Part shown: positions 3,164 through 63,673 of the stretch, piece by piece | Layout of the letters: every line of letters begins with the position of its first letter | How positions within the stretch are numbered: the first letter of the stretch is position 1 | Sequence record: NC_048205.1 | DNA length: 64,000 nt | Origin: Escherichia phage vB_Eco_mar004NP2 | Reading direction: 5' to 3' (one strand) | The notes under the pieces: generated by a model | The model's input: only the letters and a program-made list of their open reading frames with translations | What the model was told of the DNA's origin: nothing | The model's database searches: none | Position numbers and translations under genes: made by a program

Positions 3164-3192
3164 TTGCTAAAATGCCTAAGTTTCTGTATAAT
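3164..3192 (+). promoter_or_regulatory. sigma70-type promoter TTGCTA-N17-TATAAT
   Basis: -35 at 3164-3169, -10 at 3187-3192; conserved TTTATAAATTGATGAGAAGG downstream box. Confidence 0.55.
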
Positions 3193-3222
3193 TACTTTAT
3201 AAATTGATGAGAAGGAATCAAA

Positions 3223-3671: not shown

Positions 3672-3700
3672 TTGCTTTAAGCCTTAAAATTCTGTATAAT
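3672..3700 (+). promoter_or_regulatory. sigma70-type promoter TTGCTT-N17-TATAAT
   Basis: -35 at 3672-3677, -10 at 3695-3700; same downstream ATAAATTAATGAGAGAGG box. Confidence 0.55.
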
Positions 3701-3714
3701 AAGTTCATAAATTA

Positions 3715-3984
3715 ATGAGAGAGGAAATTCTAATGGAAAACATGACTAAAAATGAAATGGCTAACGTTCTGGCAATTCTCCTCGACATGCAGGGTTTTGA
3801 AGGCCAGCTCATGAAGATGTCTATTCCGGCAATGAAAAAGATGTACGATTCCCTGAATAAGAATGCTATGGCGTTCAACCTTGCAAAACAAGAAGCACGT
3901 TTTGCTAAAGAGCATCAGGCAACTGCCGAACGTCGTGCAGCATCTTTTGAGCGTGAAGTTAAGCAACTGAAAGGTAAGAAATAA
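3715..3984 (+). CDS. hypothetical protein (89 aa)
   Basis: ORF after promoter; basic C-terminus. Confidence 0.55.
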   Translation: MREEILMENMTKNEMANVLAILLDMQGFEGQLMKMSIPAMKKMYDSLNKNAMAFNLAKQEARFAKEHQATAERRAASFEREVKQLKGKK

Positions 3985-5745: not shown

Positions 5746-6064
5746 TATTGAAACTGGTCTAATAGACGGTGAAGATATTGTCAACTCCATGCTAGAAGTA
5801 ACAGTAGATAATATTAATCCTATTTTGGCTGGAGAAACCTCAGATCTTATAGGACTCTCTAGCACATTTGATTCTTTGGCTAAATTAGCTTTAGACGATG
5901 AAGATATAACCAAAGAAGATCTCGCTACAGCTATGAATATGGCTATTAATGCTTACATCGGTAAACGTACTGATGAACTTGGTAAACAGATCAATAAGCG
6001 TGATGCTACGCTAGGTCTTATGGAAACGGCCACTATGTTAAGAAGTGGTAAACAACTTCATTAA
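5693..6064 (+). CDS. hypothetical protein (start trimmed to MTEKK)
   Basis: ORF track start 5627 overlaps upstream gene by >100 nt; internal ATG with AGGA upstream chosen. Confidence 0.45.
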   Translation: MTEKKNPLLEQMKEWESNIETGLIDGEDIVNSMLEVTVDNINPILAGETSDLIGLSSTFDSLAKLALDDEDITKEDLATAMNMAINAYIGKRTDELGKQINKRDATLGLMETATMLRSGKQLH

Positions 6065-6120: not shown

Positions 6121-6324
6121 ATGCAAGTATATGTCCTTACTAGAGATATAAATGAGTATAATCAGGATGGTGAGTATTTTGTAAAAGTATTCGCTGAAAA
6201 GCCAAGTAAACAACAATTATTAGATGCGGGGGTACCCGAAGACCAGGCTAAGTGTATACTACAAGATAAAGAGTTTACCGGGGATGCTTACGAATGTTTC
6301 TACCTTAACTGTGAGACTATTTAA
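6121..6324 (+). CDS. hypothetical protein (67 aa)
   Basis: ORF after terminator. Confidence 0.45.
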   Translation: MQVYVLTRDINEYNQDGEYFVKVFAEKPSKQQLLDAGVPEDQAKCILQDKEFTGDAYECFYLNCETI

Positions 6325-6325
6325 T

Positions 6326-6772
6326 ATGAGAGAGAAAGTAAATGAATTATTAATCGAGGAAGCTAACAACTTTCCAATAAATAGGTTCATCAAATCGGAT
6401 GGATCTATTAATAGAACTAAAATTAAGCAGCTACATCCCGACTTCCAACAAGAAGCACTAAACCTTATATTTATCAAGAAAGCTGTTGCAGCTCATGGAG
6501 CTTTCTTCGGGTATGAGCGTGTAAATTATAAGACAATGCAACAGCAAGTTGAGATCTATTGTCCAGATCACGATGGTTATTACTGGCAAACTGCTAGATC
6601 TCATTTAGAAGGTCATGGATGTCGACTGTGCGCACACAAGGTTGTGCAGCGTGTCACGGATTATGGAACTTATACCGTACCAGCATGTTACCATAAATTT
6701 GTAATTGACGATAATCATATAGTTTGGTATAATAAGTTTTCAAAGCTAAGAATGGAGATAAGTAGTGAGTAG
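6326..6772 (+). CDS. zinc-ribbon protein with homing-endonuclease-type CxxH..GxGCxxC motif
   Basis: YERVNYKTMQQQVEIYCPDHDGYYWQTARSHLEGHGCRLCAHK; same motif class as ORFs at 24721-25394; start trimmed to ATG 6326. Confidence 0.45.
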   Translation: MREKVNELLIEEANNFPINRFIKSDGSINRTKIKQLHPDFQQEALNLIFIKKAVAAHGAFFGYERVNYKTMQQQVEIYCPDHDGYYWQTARSHLEGHGCRLCAHKVVQRVTDYGTYTVPACYHKFVIDDNHIVWYNKFSKLRMEISSE

Positions 6773-7055
6773 CTATATTGTATGGTCAAACCCACTAGCA
6801 GCACTTAGTAACAAACTATTTAAAACAACGTGGGGGTATAATGAAATAGACTTAGGTAGTCGCCCAATACCAAACAAACACCCCTTAGTTCCAGAGCTGT
6901 ATAAGGTAGTGATAAATGGCACGGAGTATTTGGTTGATAAATTTGACAGAAAACGTTTACTAGAGGGTATCTACGATAATTCTACATCGATAAATGAATT
7001 AGTAGAACATGCCCAAATATACGATAAGAGCTGGATGTTAATATGGAGATCATAG
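6765..7055 (+). CDS. hypothetical protein (96 aa)
   Basis: ORF. Confidence 0.5.
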   Translation: MSSYIVWSNPLAALSNKLFKTTWGYNEIDLGSRPIPNKHPLVPELYKVVINGTEYLVDKFDRKRLLEGIYDNSTSINELVEHAQIYDKSWMLIWRS

Positions 7056-7276
7056 TAATTATTTTAGCAGTTATGTTATTTATTGTAACATTTGTATCGT
7101 TTGCTATTATGCGCAGAGCTATAGAACTAGCGGAAGATATAACAAAATTACGCGGTGAGTTGGCTGCTCTTAAACTACAACGTGAAGCCCTCAAGCTATT
7201 TGTAGCTCAAGGTAGCGTAGAGCATACAGCAGAAGACTTCATCATATATCTCAAACGTTACATGGGAGTTAAATAA
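7043..7276 (+). CDS. small membrane protein with coiled coil (77 aa)
   Basis: N-terminal TM helix plus heptad-like helix. Confidence 0.5.
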   Translation: MEIIVIILAVMLFIVTFVSFAIMRRAIELAEDITKLRGELAALKLQREALKLFVAQGSVEHTAEDFIIYLKRYMGVK

Positions 7277-11646: not shown

Positions 11647-11796
11647 TTATTCTCCTTTACTAGTCATGCAGCCCAGCAGATAAGAAAATACAGCGATACC
11701 CGCACCAATAATAACCGCGTGAACGCCGAAAGCTATTGCAAAAAGTGATAAAATAGCGCCCAAGATACCTGCTAGAATAGCTCGAAAAATAACCAT
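11647..11796 (-). CDS. small membrane protein (49 aa), not in ORF track
   Basis: perfect RBS AGGAGG 6 nt before ATG; hydrophobic throughout. Confidence 0.45.
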   Translation of the reverse strand: MVIFRAILAGILGAILSLFAIAFGVHAVIIGAGIAVFSYLLGCMTSKGE

Positions 11797-11845
11797 TTGT
11801 GATAGCCTCCTAGTTATCGGGGGATATTATATCCCCCGTTATTAA

Positions 11846-12109
11846 TTACATTAAAACAATTTTTGCAGCTTGTTTTTTGGTGCAATGTTCCGCCTTCAGG
11901 GTATCCAGCAAAAAGCCAGCCGTTTGCTGATCGATTTTATCGGCGTTATATAGTTCCTGAATGGTATTATAGGTTTTAGCAATACCGAACTCCTGCACCA
12001 TTTCATAGATGACAGCACGATTAGATACCCAGCCTTGCGCGGTAAACAGATGACTAGCAGAAGAATAAGCAACCATTTTAAGCCTCCAAATTTTTGGGAA
12101 AATTTTCAA
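11846..12109 (-). CDS. hypothetical protein (87 aa)
   Basis: ORF. Confidence 0.5.
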   Translation of the reverse strand: MKIFPKIWRLKMVAYSSASHLFTAQGWVSNRAVIYEMVQEFGIAKTYNTIQELYNADKIDQQTAGFLLDTLKAEHCTKKQAAKIVLM

Positions 12110-12677: not shown

Positions 12678-12742
12678 TTATTAGCCTCCTATTAATTAAT
12701 AAGGGAATAGTAAAGCGGGGAAACAATCCCCGCTAAATATTA

Positions 12743-13735: not shown

Positions 13736-14000
13736 TTGTTGGCCTCCCTCGTTAATCGGTGAGTGAATGATAAAGGCAATTTTCTAGCATAGGCAAATAT
13801 TATTTTACCTTTTTATTTTCCTTGCCTAGCGCCTAGTTTTATGCTAACCGCGCAGCGGTACAGTAAAGAGCAAAACACGGTGAAGCCACCAGGGCGACGG
13901 GTGAAGGCTTCACTTTAATATTACCCCACCGCATTTAGCTCGTTAGAAAGCGTTTTAGGCCGCCTAAAATTGATTGCAGTTGTTAACACTACCTTTTTAC

Positions 14001-14110
14001 CCTGTATATTTATACAGTAGGATAACATGTGGATAAGTCTGTGGATAAGTCCTTATATCGTCGCCTATCGTGTCAAATCATTTTGTGCTGTTAATAAACT
14101 TGTGGATAAC
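14001..14110. repeat. right arm of ~110-bp inverted repeat with DnaA boxes
   Basis: TGTGGATAA at 14027-14035, 14039-14047, 14100-14108; palindrome CTGTATATTTATACAG 14001-14016. Confidence 0.8.
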
Positions 14111-14392
14111 TTAAATGATAGTGGTTCTCACTTAGGACGATAGTTTCTTATAGTTATTATTTCTATCGGTTACGATTTCTTATAATTATTATTTCTCATT
14201 AATTTATAAGTATATTATATATCATGAAATAGTTAGTTGGCTAATGAGATTTTCCGTGATTAATAGTCTGCTAACAGTTCCGGCTGTTACAATCCACCAG
14301 CATGATTATCATCCTAGCAACTATTAGTCTGCTATCTTTCCGATGCATACTAACAAATAAAAGTCAATTAATTTATTTCATAAAATAAGTAG

Positions 14393-14425
14393 TTATCCAC
14401 TGGAAAATAAAAGTCAAGTGGATAA
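14393..14425. promoter_or_regulatory. inverted pair of DnaA boxes
   Basis: AGTTATCCAC..N17..GTGGATAACT, perfect 10-bp inverted repeat matching DnaA-box consensus TTATCCACA. Confidence 0.6.
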
Positions 14426-14826
14426 CTAGGAAAATTTCATTTTTGCTTTTGGGGATAAGTTATCAACAAGGCTAGAATGCGCCTAAAACGCCCTATAACG
14501 CGATGAAGTTTTTAGCCATGCCATTGCATTGCCTACCCTCGTTTATCGCTACCACGAGCTTTTTAGTTTTTGTCAAGTAGGGCAAGGCAAATATAAATGA
14601 AAAAATTACTTGCCAACCTGCTGGGTTTTATGGTATTCGCGCGCCCGTTTCCTTTAATTTTAGTGCGCCGCGCCCAGGTCGCCGCACGGTGTCCGGTGGC
14701 ATTTTGTCTTTACGTTTCTTTACAAAAATAAGGTTGCGCCATTTTTACTATTTGCTATTATTTATCTCGTAGGGCGGCAATGACGAACTACACGGCGGGA
14801 AGTTTACCGCCGCGCTCTTTAAAAAT

Positions 14827-15116
14827 TGGGTACATCTTAAAGTCTATCGGCGGTAAACTTATATTATAAGGAATCGCAGATATGAAACAAACTTTATTGA
14901 TCACTGGTAAACCAGCTAAAAAATTAGATGGTACTACTAAAAAATTGTTGACAATAGCCCAGCAATCCGTAAAATACCGATTTGCTCAGTACAAGAAAGG
15001 CCGCCAGCAGGGTTTAGAAATGATCTGGCGTAATATTATGATCGACCTGAAAGAAAATCATAAAAAACTGCAAAAAACAGTTTGACACCCTAGCCGATAG
15101 GCTTTAAGATGTACCC
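14827..15116. repeat. 24-bp inverted repeat pair flanking the 67-aa gene
   Basis: GGGTACATCTTAAAGTCTATCGGC (14827-14850) versus GCCGATAGGCTTTAAGATGTACCC (15093-15116), 1 mismatch. Confidence 0.7.
14882..15085 (+). CDS. small basic protein (67 aa)
   Basis: ORF with RBS AAGGAA; Lys-rich. Confidence 0.5.
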   Translation: MKQTLLITGKPAKKLDGTTKKLLTIAQQSVKYRFAQYKKGRQQGLEMIWRNIMIDLKENHKKLQKTV

Positions 15117-15315
15117 AGTTCGATGAGAGCGATAACTTGATACAATTTGACGGTTAGGTGATTCCCCATAAATCATCCTGCCCCCTAACTGGGATATAGC
15201 AGCCTGCGTGGAGTTCCTTAAATTGATTATAGCGGTGAGCGGATTGTTGCTTATTACCTGCTACTTTCTAGCAGGTAATGCGGAACAATCCCCTAAATAA
15301 CTTGGAGTTTATACT

Positions 15316-15567
15316 ATGCAAAACGTTATTACCGCGCCTAAAATTGGTCAATCCGTTTTTATTCCTTTCGTTACTAAAACGGATGAACTAACCGGAAAAG
15401 CCGAACGTATTAAAGGTGCGGCGCTTATGCCGTTTGATACAATCGACGCGGTATACGCTGAAAATGAACGTAGTAACAACGGCAAAACCGTTTTTAGCGT
15501 TCGCGTTAAATCCGGCGACGTTGTAAAGGTTGTACAGCGTAACGAAAAATGGGAAGCTGTAGCGTAA
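15316..15567 (+). CDS. hypothetical pre-early protein (83 aa)
   Basis: ORF with conserved upstream box ..CCCCTAAAT..GGAGTTT.. Confidence 0.55.
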   Translation: MQNVITAPKIGQSVFIPFVTKTDELTGKAERIKGAALMPFDTIDAVYAENERSNNGKTVFSVRVKSGDVVKVVQRNEKWEAVA

Positions 15568-15663
15568 TAGTGTTACTTTTATATCCCCCAGTAGTTCGGG
15601 GGATATAACGATTAACATTATGTTAATCTTATCCCTTAAATTAAACTAATAGGAGTTTTTACC

Positions 15664-16071
15664 ATGACTAACGTTAAAACCGCAAAATTTGCTTGGAATG
15701 AAGAAAACACTCAAAAAGCTGTTTCTATGTACCAGCAGTTAATTAATGAAAACGGTTTAGATTTCGCAAATAGCGACGGTTTAAAAGAGATTGCAAAAGC
15801 AGTGGGCGCGTCTTCTCCCGTGTCTGTTCGCTCAAAATTGACCAGCGCAAAAGCGTATCAGAAAAGCGATAAGCCTCGCAAAGTTGGCGGCGGTAGCTCA
15901 ATCCGCAAAGCTCACTATGTACGCGTTATCGCTAAACATGCTATTGATTCCGGCATTATTAAAGACGCCGACGATCTGGCAAGTCTGGAAAGTGCAAAAC
16001 TTGAAACGCTGGACGCCGTAGCGCAACTGTTAGGCGTTGCCGATGAAGTAAAACAGGCCGCAGGTGAATAA
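15664..16071 (+). CDS. hypothetical pre-early protein (135 aa)
   Basis: ORF with conserved upstream box. Confidence 0.6.
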   Translation: MTNVKTAKFAWNEENTQKAVSMYQQLINENGLDFANSDGLKEIAKAVGASSPVSVRSKLTSAKAYQKSDKPRKVGGGSSIRKAHYVRVIAKHAIDSGIIKDADDLASLESAKLETLDAVAQLLGVADEVKQAAGE

Positions 16072-16127
16072 ATTTAATTAGTGGGGAATATTCCCCACTA
16101 TAATTTCCCTTTGACTGGAGTTTTAAA

Positions 16128-16325
16128 ATGATCTTTTACCCCACTGAATCGTTAATTTTAGGCTTATTTATTATGGCGGCCTCGTTATTATTCGCTTATT
16201 TTCAAAATGATTTAGACTCATATTATTTTAAACGTAAGTCTAAATTGGCAAAGCGTTTAGGTCTGATTTGTTTTATTGCCGCCATTGCTTGTGGTGTTAG
16301 TTCTAGCCTTATGCCTTTAAATTAA
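16128..16325 (+). CDS. small membrane protein (65 aa)
   Basis: two hydrophobic segments; conserved upstream box. Confidence 0.5.
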   Translation: MIFYPTESLILGLFIMAASLLFAYFQNDLDSYYFKRKSKLAKRLGLICFIAAIACGVSSSLMPLN

Positions 16326-16422
16326 TGTTGCAAATTATAACGCCTATTATTCAAGGCGTTATATTTGGCAATATTTGCCAATAACAAACGTTTTTTAATC
16401 CCTTTAATGGAGTTTTATTAAT

Positions 16423-18087
16423 ATGATTATTTCCGCAGAAAAACAAACCGTTATCCTGAAAATGGCCGCTGACTTTAATTTCTATGGTAAACGTCTGCGC
16501 GCTACTAAACTGGAGGTCTGCGACGATATATCAAAAGCGGTCTACGATACAACAAAACACTCGACCGCTATCTGCGACTGGTTGGAAGCAAATAAACCAG
16601 CTAAACCGAAAGCGGCGAAAGTAGCAAAAGCCATTAAAAACGATGAGCGTCCAGAAGCGGCGGGGATTGTTTCTAGCACGGTTGAGCAATGGGAAGTAAA
16701 GCAGGGTAAACGCTTTATTATTACGTCGATTCAGAATAATACTTTCCCGCATAAAAACTTTTTAGCCTCATTGGAGCAATTTGCTAAATATATCGGCGCT
16801 GATTTGCTGGTTAGCAAGTTTATTTATAACAAAAACGGTTTTCAAAATGGCGAGGGTGCAGAAGGAATAAAATATGATTCCGCATTTGACAAATATATCT
16901 GCAATAAAAACGTGTTTTTAAATAACCGCCGTTTTGCTTTCATGGCTGAAATTAACGTTTTGCCAACCGCAGATTATCCGCTTTCTGGATTCGCTGAAAC
17001 TGCAACGGCGCTTAATCTGGAAGGTCTGGCAATTGGTCACGCTAAAATTACCGCTGAAAGCGTGCCAGCTTTAAAAGGTGAAGTAGTGCGCCGTATGTAC
17101 TCAACCGGAACGGCAACGCTCAAAAACTACATTCAGCAGAAAGCAGGACAAAAGGCCGAGGCGCTGCATAACTTCGGTGCGCTAATTGTCGAGTTCGACG
17201 AGGACGGGGAATTTTTTGTACGCCAGCTCGAAACGATGGACGAAAGCGGGGTATTTTATGATCTGAATGTGTGCGCTACTCCTGCCGGATGCTATGAGAC
17301 ATCGGGGCATGTTTTAGGCTTGCAATACGGCGATATTCACGCAGAAAAACTAGATGATGATTGTGCCGTTGCGTCATGGGCTGGCGAAAATAGCTTGCTT
17401 GATATTCTCAAGCCTAAATATCAGTTTATCCATGACGTGCATGATTTTACATCACGCAACCATCACAACCGCGCATCCGGTGTATTCCTAGCAAAACAAT
17501 ACGCCGCCGGACGTGATAAGGTATTAGATGATCTTATCGATACGGGGCGCGTGCTGGAATCAATGGAACGTGATTTCTCGCAAACAATCATTGTTGAATC
17601 TAATCACGATTTGGCGCTATCCCGTTGGCTTGATGATCGTAATGCTAACATTAAAGACGATCCAGCAAACGCGGAACTATATCACCGCCTAAATGCCGCG
17701 ATTTATGGAGCTATTGCAGAAAAAGACGATACTTTCAACGTGCTAGATTATGCGCTGCGCAAGGTTGCAGGTTGTGAGTTTAACGCCATTTTTCTAACTA
17801 CTGACCAATCTTTCAAGATTGCAGGCATTGAATGCGGCGTACACGGTCACAACGGCATTAACGGCAGCCGTGGCAATCCTAAACAATTTAAGAAATTGGG
17901 CAAATTAAACACCGGACACACTCACACCGCCAGCATTTATGGCGGCGTGTATACCGCTGGCGTAGCTGGTAGTCTGGACATGGGTTACAACGTTGGCGCG
18001 TCAAGCTGGACGCAAACGCATTTAATTACCTATGCAAACGGTCAGCGCACTTTGATTGACTTTAAAAACGGTAAATTCTTTGCGTAA
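16423..18087 (+). CDS. A1: A1-like pre-early protein (554 aa)
   Basis: size and position next to dmp-like gene as in T5 pre-early region; GDIH and GHNG motifs compatible with phosphoesterase-like fold (recalled, not searched). Confidence 0.6.
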   Translation: MIISAEKQTVILKMAADFNFYGKRLRATKLEVCDDISKAVYDTTKHSTAICDWLEANKPAKPKAAKVAKAIKNDERPEAAGIVSSTVEQWEVKQGKRFIITSIQNNTFPHKNFLASLEQFAKYIGADLLVSKFIYNKNGFQNGEGAEGIKYDSAFDKYICNKNVFLNNRRFAFMAEINVLPTADYPLSGFAETATALNLEGLAIGHAKITAESVPALKGEVVRRMYSTGTATLKNYIQQKAGQKAEALHNFGALIVEFDEDGEFFVRQLETMDESGVFYDLNVCATPAGCYETSGHVLGLQYGDIHAEKLDDDCAVASWAGENSLLDILKPKYQFIHDVHDFTSRNHHNRASGVFLAKQYAAGRDKVLDDLIDTGRVLESMERDFSQTIIVESNHDLALSRWLDDRNANIKDDPANAELYHRLNAAIYGAIAEKDDTFNVLDYALRKVAGCEFNAIFLTTDQSFKIAGIECGVHGHNGINGSRGNPKQFKKLGKLNTGHTHTASIYGGVYTAGVAGSLDMGYNVGASSWTQTHLITYANGQRTLIDFKNGKFFA

Positions 18088-18143
18088 ATAATTAATCCCC
18101 TAGCGGCTTGAAATATAGCCGCTATTACAGGAGCTAAATTAGA

Positions 18144-18401
18144 ATGAAAGTTACATTACCCAAAACGCTAGACGAAAAAGCATTTATTTCACCGGATGAA
18201 ATGGAATCCGATAAAGTTTACAGCTTCGGGCCTATTCTAGCCGCCAAAACTAATACTGATGGGATTATTACGGTCGATTATCGTGATAATGATATTGTAC
18301 CCTTTGACGATGATGGTGCTTTTTATGAGTGGCTAAGCGATAATAATTTACCCGTAAACGGTGAATTAACGCCGTACCAGATGCAGATTATTATCAAATA
18401 A
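18144..18401 (+). CDS. hypothetical pre-early protein (85 aa)
   Basis: ORF. Confidence 0.5.
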   Translation: MKVTLPKTLDEKAFISPDEMESDKVYSFGPILAAKTNTDGIITVDYRDNDIVPFDDDGAFYEWLSDNNLPVNGELTPYQMQIIIK

Positions 18402-18439
18402 ATTAAATCCATTATTAAACTAATTGGAGTTTTATAAAC

Positions 18440-18832
18440 ATGAAAAAGCAAAATATTCCATTTGACCGCGCTCAATCCTCAATTGTTCTGGTTTATTCTA
18501 ATGGTGAGCGTTACCACGTCGAGGCGGGGCACGTTATTGATGAATTGCTAGATTTCAATGACGCTTTGCAGGTTACAACATTTGCATATATGCAAGGCAA
18601 ACTAACTAGCCATATTAAAGCAAAAGGCGTTTATGTTGACACGGTGAAACAAGAAACGATTATCATCGACGCAGTAAAATCCGGTCTAACCTTTGCAGTT
18701 GTCGCGCCTTGCCCCGCTTGCCTTGATGATCAATTGATTTCTGCAAAAGTATATACTTGTGCGGGGATTCGTTCCCATGTATCAGGTGAGGATGTTAGTT
18801 TTATCGCCGATGCGTTGGCTTATGGTCTTTAA
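18440..18832 (+). CDS. hypothetical pre-early protein (130 aa), possibly A2-like by size
   Basis: ORF between A1-like and dmp-like genes; assignment positional only. Confidence 0.5.
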   Translation: MKKQNIPFDRAQSSIVLVYSNGERYHVEAGHVIDELLDFNDALQVTTFAYMQGKLTSHIKAKGVYVDTVKQETIIIDAVKSGLTFAVVAPCPACLDDQLISAKVYTCAGIRSHVSGEDVSFIADALAYGL

Positions 18833-18911
18833 TAGTTAATTTATTATTACCCGCTTATAAATAGCGGGTAATGCTGAATTAATCTAATCCCTTAAATGGA
18901 GAACGTAACAA

Positions 18912-19646
18912 ATGAATAAAGCTATCATGAATCTTTCCCGCAGCTTCCCGCATATTTCCCGCGTCATGATTTGGGATTTAGACGGCACTATCATTAATTC
19001 TTTCCATCGTGTAGCACCCTGCTTTGATAGCGAGGGCAATTTAGATTTAAATAAGTATAAAAATGAAGCGTGTAAACACCATTTAATAATGCAAGATACT
19101 TTATTGCCATTGGTTGAATATATGCGCCAGTGCATGAATGACGCAAATACTTTAAACATTATTTGCACCGCTCGACTGATGAGTAAGTCGGACTATTATT
19201 TCTTGCGTAAACAAGGGTTGCGCGGTCGTGGTAATAGTAATATCCGCGTATTTTCCCGCGATACACTACACAAATATTTTAAAGCTGATAAGGTTAGCGA
19301 AATATACCACAGCAAAGACGCAGTATATAAATCTTATTATTTTGAATTATTTAAACAGTTATATCCTAACGCTGATTTTACAATGATTGATGATCATAAA
19401 GGCGTGCTATCAGCGGCAGCGTCATACGGATTTAAAACGCTGGACGCACAAGCCGTTAATGATATTCTATCAATCGGCGTGGCATTGATAGGTGAAACCT
19501 TTATTGATGAATCTCTCGACGATGATAATGATTATCAATTCCTAGCTGACCGTTTAAAATTATGCTGGGAAGGTATGACCGAGGAAGAACGCGCAGAATA
19601 TAGTTGCAGTCCTCAACAATATATTGAGAAATTAAAAGTTGCCTAA
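18912..19646 (+). CDS. dmp: HAD-family 5'-deoxyribonucleotidase (dmp-like)
   Basis: N-terminal HAD motif I MIWDLDGTI; 244 aa. Confidence 0.7.
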   Translation: MNKAIMNLSRSFPHISRVMIWDLDGTIINSFHRVAPCFDSEGNLDLNKYKNEACKHHLIMQDTLLPLVEYMRQCMNDANTLNIICTARLMSKSDYYFLRKQGLRGRGNSNIRVFSRDTLHKYFKADKVSEIYHSKDAVYKSYYFELFKQLYPNADFTMIDDHKGVLSAAASYGFKTLDAQAVNDILSIGVALIGETFIDESLDDDNDYQFLADRLKLCWEGMTEEERAEYSCSPQQYIEKLKVA

Positions 19647-19798
19647 CAATTAAAGTTGAAATAGTCACGGTGTGTAATGATACCATGCCGTGACTATTAG
19701 CCTGCTAAGTACCGGGCGGTAATGAGACTCATTCTCATCTGGGGGGCCACTGGACACACCCACGCGTACGTAATCCAAAGAAATTGGCAAAAGTCAAA

Positions 19799-20897: not shown

Positions 20898-20982
20898 ATT
20901 TATCTCTCCATTTCTAATTTATGAATTTATTATAGCAAAATAGAGGGATGAAAGCAAATACATTTTTATAATAGGAGATTAT

Positions 20983-62842: not shown

Positions 62843-63617
62843 TATTATTTTTCTCCAATAGTTCTTTAATCGACAGGATTTCTATCCCATTCGTTTCGGC
62901 TTTCTTATAAGATGAGGAAGAACGTTTTGATTCATCCTCACAGATTAGGTATTTGACGTCTTTAGTAACTGATTTCTTAACCGTATACCCTAGACCTTCT
63001 AAATAGTTTGTTGCATCCGTTCGATTTGCAAAATCTTGCAAAGATCCGGTAATACATACCGCGATTCCATTTGGCTGGGCAACTAATTCATCTGTAATGA
63101 TGACGTCAGCTTTAGTGCCCTTAATACCAGTTGAAAATTTCCACGGTAGTTCGATAACATCCTTGCCTTGTGGGGAATTTAGCCAGGCTTTGTAATTTTC
63201 TCCAGCCTTGCCGTCAGCCTTCACATCATGGAAGCTAGTGCAATTTTGGGATAATTTCTTTGCTGCAACCTCTCCAATTAGAGGGATTCCTAAAGAACCG
63301 AGAACTGAACCAAAGTCAATGTCTCCGCGAACTTTAGTATTTAATTCGCTAATTAACTTAGCGGCAACCTTGCTACCCACGGCTCTAACCAAATCTTCTT
63401 CGGTTAGGTAAAATAGTTCTGAAATCTTCGTCAGCTCCAGCTTCTCAATAGTTTTTGGGCCAAAGCCCTTTAACTTCATTTTTGAACAGAAGTTCTCAAT
63501 TAACTTACTTGATTGCGCTGGACAGTTGGACTTATTCCGACAGAATAATTGTCCGTTGACAAGATCTAGCTTAGAACCACAAGAGGGACATTGTGTTGGA
63601 ATTTCGATTTTCATCAA
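62835..63617 (-). CDS. NAD-dependent DNA ligase, C-terminal subunit (zinc finger, HhH, BRCT-like)
   Basis: N-terminal CPSCGS..C..C zinc motif aligns with LigA zinc finger; 260 aa. Confidence 0.6.
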   Translation of the reverse strand: MMKIEIPTQCPSCGSKLDLVNGQLFCRNKSNCPAQSSKLIENFCSKMKLKGFGPKTIEKLELTKISELFYLTEEDLVRAVGSKVAAKLISELNTKVRGDIDFGSVLGSLGIPLIGEVAAKKLSQNCTSFHDVKADGKAGENYKAWLNSPQGKDVIELPWKFSTGIKGTKADVIITDELVAQPNGIAVCITGSLQDFANRTDATNYLEGLGYTVKKSVTKDVKYLICEDESKRSSSSYKKAETNGIEILSIKELLEKNNNV

Positions 63618-63644
63618 ATTTCTTCCTTATCAATTTATATAAAT

Positions 63645-63673
63645 ATTATAGCAAGTATTTAAGCATTTAGCAA
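63645..63673 (-). promoter_or_regulatory. sigma70-type promoter TTGCTA-N17-TATAAT (minus strand)
   Basis: reverse complement read directly; between the two ligase ORFs. Confidence 0.55.

Follow-up and report, generated by a model that had tools for sequence, protein, structure and literature searches.

A conserved box before the pre-early genes of T5-like phages that co-varies with its Shine-Dalgarno context

Described operators and the pre-early operon

Short stem-loops that include a ribosome-binding site, and whose stem sequence is free as long as it remains paired, are known from the MS2 replicase operator and the T4 gene 43 operator, the former with a bulged A and a small loop rich in A/U. 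In this work we analyzed a repeated element of Escherichia phage vB_Eco_mar004NP2 (NC_048205.1; "the window" refers to the whole stretch of 64,000 nucleotides analyzed), consisting of a C-rich box located upstream of the Shine-Dalgarno sequence (SD) of the pre-early genes, with which it would form a mini-hairpin in the mRNA. In contrast with the two operators mentioned, the proposed T5-type hairpin recurs in nearly all cistrons of a whole temporal class and in two operons, the SD itself provides its bulged A, in the 3′ arm, and its predicted stability is lower. As in other cis-acting anti-SD elements, an upstream complement of the SD is present and is kept by compensatory change. For the Rsa small RNAs of Staphylococcus aureus, C-rich (UCCC) anti-SD motifs have been reported whose unpaired C-run pairs with a G-rich SD (PMC2790875); these act in trans from small RNAs, whereas the T5-type box lies in cis, 3-20 nucleotides (nt) 5′ of the SD.

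Other systems share single traits with this locus. In the class-wide control exerted by RegB and RegA of T4, the start regions of one temporal class also share GGAG SDs, although the T5-type signature consists of structure plus box and not of GGAG alone; no RegB or RegA homologue was identified in a scan of ten pre-early proteins. The PeSL cassettes of T4 are likewise repeated intergenic stem-loop modules that flank small early genes and coincide with boundaries of cassette exchange, but the T5-type modules have no promoter and their conserved part is the translation initiation region (TIR). Intrinsic terminators share a G+C-rich stem-loop placed right after the stop codon, whereas the hairpins of the window lack a U-tract and the operon continues beyond them. 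A search of Rfam with a permissive E-value, over 9-21 kb, gave only chance-level matches far below the gathering scores. The T5-type element is not an intrinsic terminator, a PeSL cassette, a boxA or an Rfam family, its closest relatives being cis-acting hairpins and operators that sequester the SD; the principle is ordinary, but its use here is unusually systematic and family-wide. No description of the motif was found in the searchable literature, older T5 papers in subscription journals being beyond that search.

By comparison with the annotated T5 genome, the region 14.8-19.7 kb corresponded to the pre-early, or first-step-transfer (FST), operon that is the leftward one in T5, in agreement with the pre-early-like operon proposed in a first-pass annotation made from the letters of the window. 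The window DNA was 100% identical to Salmonella phage PMBT29 and 80-95% identical to hundreds of T5-like phages. The order of the homologues was T5.008-T5.007-A2-T5.005-A1-T5.003-T5.002-dmp, and a second, divergent pre-early operon occupied 10.7-13.8 kb on the minus strand. The start codons were as follows, assigned by match to the T5 annotation except where indicated:

14882, plus strand: T5.008 homologue
15316, plus strand: T5.007 homologue
15664, plus strand: A2
16128, plus strand: T5.005 homologue, a membrane protein
16423, plus strand: A1
18144, plus strand: small open reading frame (ORF) in the T5.003 position, matched by position
18440, plus strand: T5.002 homologue
18912, plus strand: dmp

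Box and Shine-Dalgarno context in the window and in related lineages

The box AATCCC(T)TWAAT was found 0-16 nt 5′ of a GGAG SD in seven of the eight cistrons. Allowing at most one mismatch, AATCCCTTAAAT occurred six times in the 64 kb when both strands were considered (128 kb of strand), and four of these copies were on the plus strand inside the 3.6-kb operon, each directly 5′ of a start codon (15287, 15630, 16397, and 18886). Two further copies were degenerate (16102-16115, AATTTCCCTTTGAC, before 16128; 18405-18416, AAATCCATTATT, before 18440), and another one, missing from the first-pass annotation, was located at 18092-18103, 5′ of gene 18144, overlapping the 5′ arm of a hairpin. GGAGTTTT was present in eight exact copies in the window, four of them in the operon, the expectation for the whole window being 2.7. 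A strict C-box pattern preceded 8 of 15 pre-early starts as compared to 2 of 66 other starts (Fisher P = 7.5e-6), bearing in mind that this pattern was defined post hoc and that the genes of the window were called heuristically. Three of these eight pre-early starts belong to the divergent operon, thus indicating a property of the gene class rather than of a single operon. The conserved box that the first-pass annotation had placed before most genes of the operon was therefore real (four near-exact, two degenerate, and one additional copy) and enriched over the rest of the window. The same annotation had described box, U-tract, and SD as one element of about 25 nt; box and SD stood, but not as a single unit, as the distance between them varied (0-16 nt) and the U-tract, present in four of the seven box sites, was not conserved beyond the T5 genus. 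The modules of the operon were the following:

15287-15318, plus strand: TIR of the T5.007 homologue; box AATCCCCTAAAT at 15287-98, SD GGAG at 15304-07, ATG at 15316
15630-15666, plus strand: TIR of A2, a mosaic of two other modules; box TATCCCTTAAAT at 15630-41, SD GGAG at 15652-55, ATG at 15664
16102-16130, plus strand: TIR of the T5.005 homologue; box AATTTCCCTTTGAC, SD GGAG at 16117-20, ATG at 16128
16397-16425, plus strand: TIR of A1, which fits a 13-nt frame CCC-UUUAAU-GGAG; box AATCCCTTTAAT, SD GGAG at 16409-12, ATG at 16423
18092-18146, plus strand: TIR of gene 18144; box TTAATCCCCTAG and SD GGAG (18130-33) on either side of hairpin 18101-18124, ATG at 18144
18405-18442, plus strand: TIR of the T5.002 homologue; degenerate box AAATCCATTATT, SD GGAG at 18426-29, ATG at 18440; UCCA can pair with UGGA, and no hairpin lies 5′ of the module
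18886-18914, plus strand: TIR of dmp; box AATCCCTTAAAT, the exact consensus, SD GGAG at 18898-901, ATG at 18912

The same boxes were present in T5 itself. The homologous operon was then examined in five further phages, with decreasing identity of A1: Klebsiella phage Roth37 (72%), Erwinia phage KEY (66%), Proteus phage 1 (42%), and Vibrio phages D239 (34%) and IW18 (31%). Spacers could not be aligned in these five phages, yet nearly every cistron displayed a C-run preceded by A/U and located 3-19 nt 5′ of the SD; the box-hairpin-SD order of gene 18144 was also found in D239 (L005, gene at 5925). C-run and SD context changed together among lineages, which suggests that the box is the 5′ arm of a mini-hairpin and the SD its 3′ arm. 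The arms observed were as follows (loop in lower case):

5′ arm CCCuuuaau, 3′ arm GGAG: T5 genus
5′ arm CCCA-nnnn, 3′ arm UGGAG: many lineages
5′ arm CCCG-aaac, 3′ arm CGGAG: Roth37 dmp
5′ arm CCGC-aaaa, 3′ arm GCGAG: IW18
5′ arm CCGCU-aua, 3′ arm AGCGAG: L060
5′ arm CCGCA-aaa, 3′ arm UGCGAG: L060
5′ arm CCCGU-aaug, 3′ arm ACGGAG: L052, three cistrons
5′ arms CCUA, CCUAU, and CCUCA, 3′ arms UAGAG, AUAGAG, and UGAGAG, respectively: L056

In the divergent pre-early operon of Vibrio-type phages the same hairpin appeared with other stems (CCGCCA/UGGCGAG, CCACGA/UCGUGAG, and CCAAU/AUUGAG). Three such sites were located in the divergent operon of the window:

12084-12098, minus strand: anti-SD hairpin CCCAA-aaau-UUGGAG
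12686-12704, minus strand: anti-SD hairpin CCUUAUU-aauu-AAUAGGAG
13748-13759, minus strand: anti-SD hairpin CCG-auuaa-CGAG, before the T5.011 homologue

Also in this operon, at 11807-11838 (minus strand), before a small gene at 11647-11796, the C-run able to pair with the SD (CCCCCgauaacuAGGAGG) also belongs to a strong GGGGGAUAUAAUAUCCCCC hairpin, of which it forms the 3′ arm; as modelled, the two structures are mutually exclusive and could constitute a switch.

For quantification, the pairing model was fixed as CC followed by further pairs, a loop of 3-12 nt, and an end G-A-G, with GAG 4-13 nt before the ATG. It was applied with custom scripts, from which the pair counts derive, to 69 TIRs, that is, all cistrons with a non-coding leader of the A2-A1-dmp operon in 13 lineages (the window plus 12), unselected for pairing. 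At least three, four, and five consecutive pairs were found in 81, 61, and 26% of the pre-early TIRs vs. 14, 8, and 3% of 66 non-pre-early genes of the window (Fisher P = 5e-16, 2e-11, and 1e-4, respectively), and in 25, 12, and 4% of controls in which the 5′ part was shuffled. When 3′ arms were swapped among TIRs, at least four pairs were obtained in 25.0 ± 3.2 cases as compared to 42 observed, a value reached in none of 2000 permutations (0/2000). The third position of the helix was occupied by C:G (22), G:C (5), U:A (7), and U.G (22) pairs, and the fourth by A:U (21), U:A (8), C:G (6), and G:C (5); the presence of G.U pairs indicates a structure specific to the mRNA strand. With the helix anchored on one C only, its 5′ neighbor was still a C in 41 of 47 cases vs. 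a background of 23%, which speaks for a further C-G pair on the other side of the bulged A. The motif exists, is specific to one strand and to the pre-early class, and is conserved across the family, and the box co-varies with the SD context of its own cistron. It was mostly absent from the distant A1-encoding contigs L066, L068, L069, and L070, and appears, from the sequences compared, to be confined to the FST regions of T5-like (Demerecviridae-type) phages.

These data bear directly on whether the box could act in the DNA instead, either as a -10-like element or as the site of a DNA-binding protein, a proposal that we find hardly credible. TTAAAT is similar to a -10 hexamer and A2 is annotated in T5 as a DNA-binding protein; however, with the boxes 12-30 nt from the ATG, any transcript begun there would lack the SD, and the promoter scan gave no plus-strand sigma-70-like site overlapping them. 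On position and scan, TTAAAT was rejected as a -10 element. Moreover, every copy lies on the coding strand, its distance to the SD being variable, and the G.U pairs are strand-specific. Complementarity of the box to loops of 16S rRNA (the 790 loop and the helix 17 "epsilon" region) appeared inconsistent between sites and was set aside.

We estimate a probability of about 0.6 that the box works by pairing with the SD in the mRNA, as judged from sequence comparison. In such a hairpin the first C of the C-run would pair with the last G of the GAG of the SD, leaving the A bulged, and the second C would pair with the G preceding this A, followed by one to four further pairs; the loop would be A/U-rich, mostly of 4-5 nt but reaching 16 nt within the T5 genus, and the start codon would lie 7-10 nt 3′ of the hairpin. 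Several observations weigh against this interpretation. The predicted hairpins are weak (dG between about -1.5 and -2.2 kcal/mol for sites of the T5 genus, and between -3 and -5 for the others), the pair beyond the bulged A is usually outside the minimum-energy fold, most sites of the T5 genus have three pairs only with loops of 5-16 nt, and folding of the first cistron places its box inside a long helix of the leader instead. The probability of the SD being paired did not separate pre-early from other genes of the window in a generic calculation (P = 0.08), and in the window alone the strict hairpin pattern was only modestly enriched (P = 0.03), 6% of the bases containing 4 of 20 hits. Inspection of the data preceded the definition of the model, and the gene starts of relatives were partly heuristic; in addition, the TIRs share ancestry and are not independent, the informative lineages being those with differing stems. 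A first, crude comparison of own and crossed stems in 191 TIRs, mostly near-identical ones of the T5 genus, yielded means of 3.04 and 2.88 and had no power. Finally, the identity of the 12-nt box in the T5 genus exceeds what pairing needs and is a stronger signal than three base pairs, and it fits paralogy or a sequence-specific binder equally well.

Such a binder is at the center of an alternative that we regard as rather improbable, in which the box would be a single-stranded binding site for a phage regulator or for host NusB/NusE, translation being repressed or timed through it and the pairing with the SD being incidental. Box identity over at least 12 nt within a genome, beyond the pairing need, would be expected in that case, and so would the lineage-specific flavor of the box if it co-evolves with a factor; the T5- and Proteus-type box UCCCUUUAA resembles boxA (GCUCUUUAA), and genuine boxA elements are found at the head of the same operon. 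There is also a precedent in suhB, where a boxA 6 nt from the SD represses translation (bioRxiv 10.1101/091223). Nevertheless, the Vibrio-type boxes AACCGCAAAAG and AACCCAUAAU are unlike boxA, different stems within a single phage (CCGC/GCGAG, CCCA/UGGAG, and CCU/AGAG) argue against recognition of a specific box sequence, and in the partner-swap test the box followed the SD context of its own cistron. When the ten pre-early proteins, A1 and dmp not among them, were scanned against Pfam and PHROG, only domains of unknown function were obtained, and no RNA-binding domain was recognized. The identification of the intercistronic box as boxA itself was rejected, since the T5- and Proteus-type boxes match at seven of nine positions whereas those of Roth37, KEY, and the Vibrio type do not match.

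If the box does pair with the SD, the hairpin may gate or mark ribosome access at each pre-early cistron, providing a common post-transcriptional handle specific to the pre-early (FST) genes of T5-like phages. This could operate in two ways. A fast-forming local hairpin could intrinsically set and insulate initiation on an mRNA made at rRNA-like rates; alternatively, the conserved shape, with its bulged A, A/U tetraloop, and free stems, is reminiscent of the MS2 operator and could be an operator common to the class, through which pre-early synthesis would be shut off in a coordinated manner. Shut-off of pre-early synthesis is tied to A1 by classical genetics. The coordinated translational control proposed in the first-pass annotation is thus in part sustained: the box can pair and co-varies with the SD, is restricted to one class, and is conserved in the family, all of which would be consistent with it; the predicted hairpins are weak.

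Gene-end hairpins and exchange of modules

Of the seven cistrons with a box, five were followed by a strong hairpin without a U-tract, and the leader presented a similar hairpin before the first box. Those at 15581-15606, 16079-16100, 18101-18124, 18847-18871, and 19660-19698 presented dG values of -13.7 to -20.8 kcal/mol and z-scores of -3.1 to -6.7. The stem-loop that had been claimed after each gene was hence confirmed for these five, but none occurred after 18401, two occurred after 16325, and the leader hairpin was additional. Individual features, other than the hairpin 18101-18124 given above, were:

15254-15278, plus strand: leader hairpin 5′ of the first box, paralogue of the 18847-18871 hairpin; dG -15.3, z -6.1
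15581-15606, plus strand: hairpin 3′ of the T5.007 homologue, no U-tract; dG -14.8, z -3.1
16079-16100, plus strand: hairpin 3′ of A2; dG -15.2, z -4.1
16336-16363, plus strand: first of two hairpins after the T5.005 homologue; dG -13.3, z -6.6
16365-16381, plus strand: second of two hairpins after the T5.005 homologue; dG -7.1, z -1.8
18847-18871, plus strand: hairpin 3′ of the T5.002 homologue; dG -16.1, z -5.6
19660-19698, plus strand: long hairpin after dmp, at the end of the operon; dG -20.8, z -6.7

The position of these hairpins was kept among relatives, their sequence being either compensated, as happened in those 3′ of the T5.005 homologue, or replaced wholesale, as after dmp, where T5 has a hairpin of unrelated sequence in the same place. 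No U-tract was found in the plus-strand hairpins of 15.2-19.7 kb, whose 3′ tails were AACGAUU, AUAAUUU, AUUUGG, UUACAGG, UGCUGAA, and AGCCUGC, and the terminator scan called none there. Intrinsic termination was consequently rejected for these elements: the G+C-rich stem-loop is present but the U run is missing, so they are not canonical terminators. They would more probably act as 3′ stabilizers or insulators. Under the mechanism we favor, in which the box pairs with the SD, the repeated intercistronic module would comprise stop codon, stable hairpin, AU-rich linker, anti-SD box, loop, SD, and AUG, and the gene-end hairpins would insulate and stabilize mRNA segments instead of terminating transcription.

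The segmental mRNA processing also suggested in the first-pass annotation would be endonucleolytic, host RNase E or a RegB-like phage enzyme cutting the message 3′ of the gene-end hairpin and 5′ of the SD; stable hairpins lacking U-tracts do lie immediately 5′ of AU-rich linkers. Such cuts could leave monocistronic segments with a protective 3′ hairpin, or inactivate pre-early messages at shut-off. The SD was almost invariably GGAG in the pre-early class, and RegB of T4 targets GGAG in the SDs of early genes. Box and SD co-vary, however, which cleavage would leave unexplained unless the hairpin is the recognition structure, and no nuclease family was recognized in the ten proteins scanned (A1 and dmp excluded). 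On balance we consider processing distinctly improbable.

Modules were closely related to each other, with identities of 95% between 15623-41 and 18879-97, 95% between 15640-59 and 18414-33, and 94% between 16396-412 and 18885-901. The hairpins at 15251-85 (leader) and 18844-78 (before dmp) were 77% identical paralogues (TTATTACCyGC...GCrGGTAATGC), which indicates that gene-end hairpins, like boxes, were duplicated within the operon. The ORF 18144-18401 gave no BLASTP alignment with T5.003 (L001 1371-1649); DNA identity with T5 stopped exactly at its start codon and resumed at the last codons before the stop, together with the next box, whereas the start-region modules flanking it were about 95% identical to those of T5. 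Some relatives had no gene at the T5.003 position and still retained hairpin, box, and SD. Being near-identical paralogues, the modules may also be recombination boundaries for swaps of gene cassettes, and the punctuation would therefore work as cassette boundaries as well, to judge from the alignments.

In its extreme form, this would make the modules ordinary ribosome-binding cassettes without any special function, duplicated or gene-converted and kept as homology patches for cassette exchange. The modules are indeed mutual mosaics with 89-95% identity, T5.003 is exchanged for an unrelated ORF whose limits coincide with two of them, and the gene content between modules varies among relatives. 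Against it, the motif persists with compensatory changes where spacers cannot be aligned and is absent from other gene classes, and neutral paralogy would not keep complementarity; absence of function is accordingly very unlikely in our opinion.

Leader signals, other elements of the region, and significance

Two promoter-like sites and a boxA were located at the head of the operon:

14793-14830, plus strand: small hairpin (14793-14812) followed by boxA CGCTCTTTAAAAATTGGG (14813-30), of rrn/lambda-like type
14948-14975, plus strand: sigma-70 promoter-like site TTGACA-16-TAAAAT (promoter scan), corresponding to P-H22 of T5
15082-15110, plus strand: sigma-70 promoter-like site TTGACA-17-TAAGAT (promoter scan), within the fragment annotated as P-D/E20 in T5

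The order of hairpin and boxA is the boxB-boxA order of rrn leaders. This boxA lies downstream of strong pre-early promoters, matches the consensus, and is conserved in relatives: CGCTCTTTAA was found in 57 of 70 related loci, mostly on the plus strand and in an equivalent position 5′ of the operon, and the boxA of Erwinia phage KEY was CGCTCTTTAACAATTTGG. Examples in related loci were:

L001, ~4980, minus strand: boxA
L002, 1731: boxA
L003, 1854 and 2259: boxA
L004, 1572, 1747, 2183, and 2270: boxA
L005, 2737: boxA
L006, 2313: boxA

These features suggest antitermination of pre-early transcription by Nus factors. The leader boxA overlaps the region annotated in T5 as the 35-codon ORF T5.009, which may therefore be an RNA signal and not a gene. 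Neither a link between T5 and boxA nor a mapping of T5 transcript ends was found in the searchable literature, older T5 papers in subscription journals being outside that search.

Other elements were noted in the vicinity. A non-coding element with core GGGCGGTAAtGAGACT was located 3′ of the dmp hairpin; the position matching the physical left end of T5 DNA (...GTGGACA) lies about 35 nt outside it, and the element was kept from Salmonella to Proteus and Vibrio T5-like phages. Its position indicates that the window assembly runs across the genome end, and recognition of the terminus or packaging may be its role. Clusters of TGTGGATAA / TTATCCAC repeats, DnaA-box-like, were observed in the large non-coding region between the pre-early operons, which corresponds to the injection stop signal annotated in T5; similar repeats occurred in the Vibrio phage loci L005 and L006. 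Early genes presented another shared leader, composed of TATAAT, a few bases, TTCATAAATT(A/G), and SD, as in the classic N25-type early promoters of T5. Each temporal class thus seems to have its own leader signature. The coordinates were:

~19725-19790, plus strand: GGGCGGTAAtGAGACT element of the window
L001 1-75, minus strand; L003 ~6755-6850; L004 ~6985-7090; L006 ~6160-6260: GGGCGGTAAtGAGACT element in relatives
~14027-14112 and 14390-14470: TGTGGATAA / TTATCCAC repeat clusters
3185-3222, 3695-3732, and 6725-6764, plus strand: early-gene leader
20898-20945 and 63615-63660, minus strand: early-gene leader

Taking leader and modules together, the FST DNA could be pictured as a unit resembling an rRNA operon, with strong promoters, boxB-boxA, read-through hairpins, and a mini-hairpin operator switching the whole class off (or on). 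We regard this picture as doubtful; if true, the factor acting on the operator would be phage-encoded or host-derived, and its action would be the mechanism of the A1-dependent shut-off of pre-early synthesis.

The timing and shut-off of T5 pre-early expression have been an open question since the 1970s, and most pre-early proteins have no assigned function. The finding supplies cis-elements that can be mutated, a predicted SD hairpin, class-specific and family-wide, and a boxA at the head of the operon, which separate transcriptional from post-transcriptional models, and Nus factors, ribosomal protein S1, and RNases are the host factors predicted to matter. The modules would explain the clean exchange of gene cassettes between phages in this region, and they are best left intact when pre-early genes are engineered or deleted.

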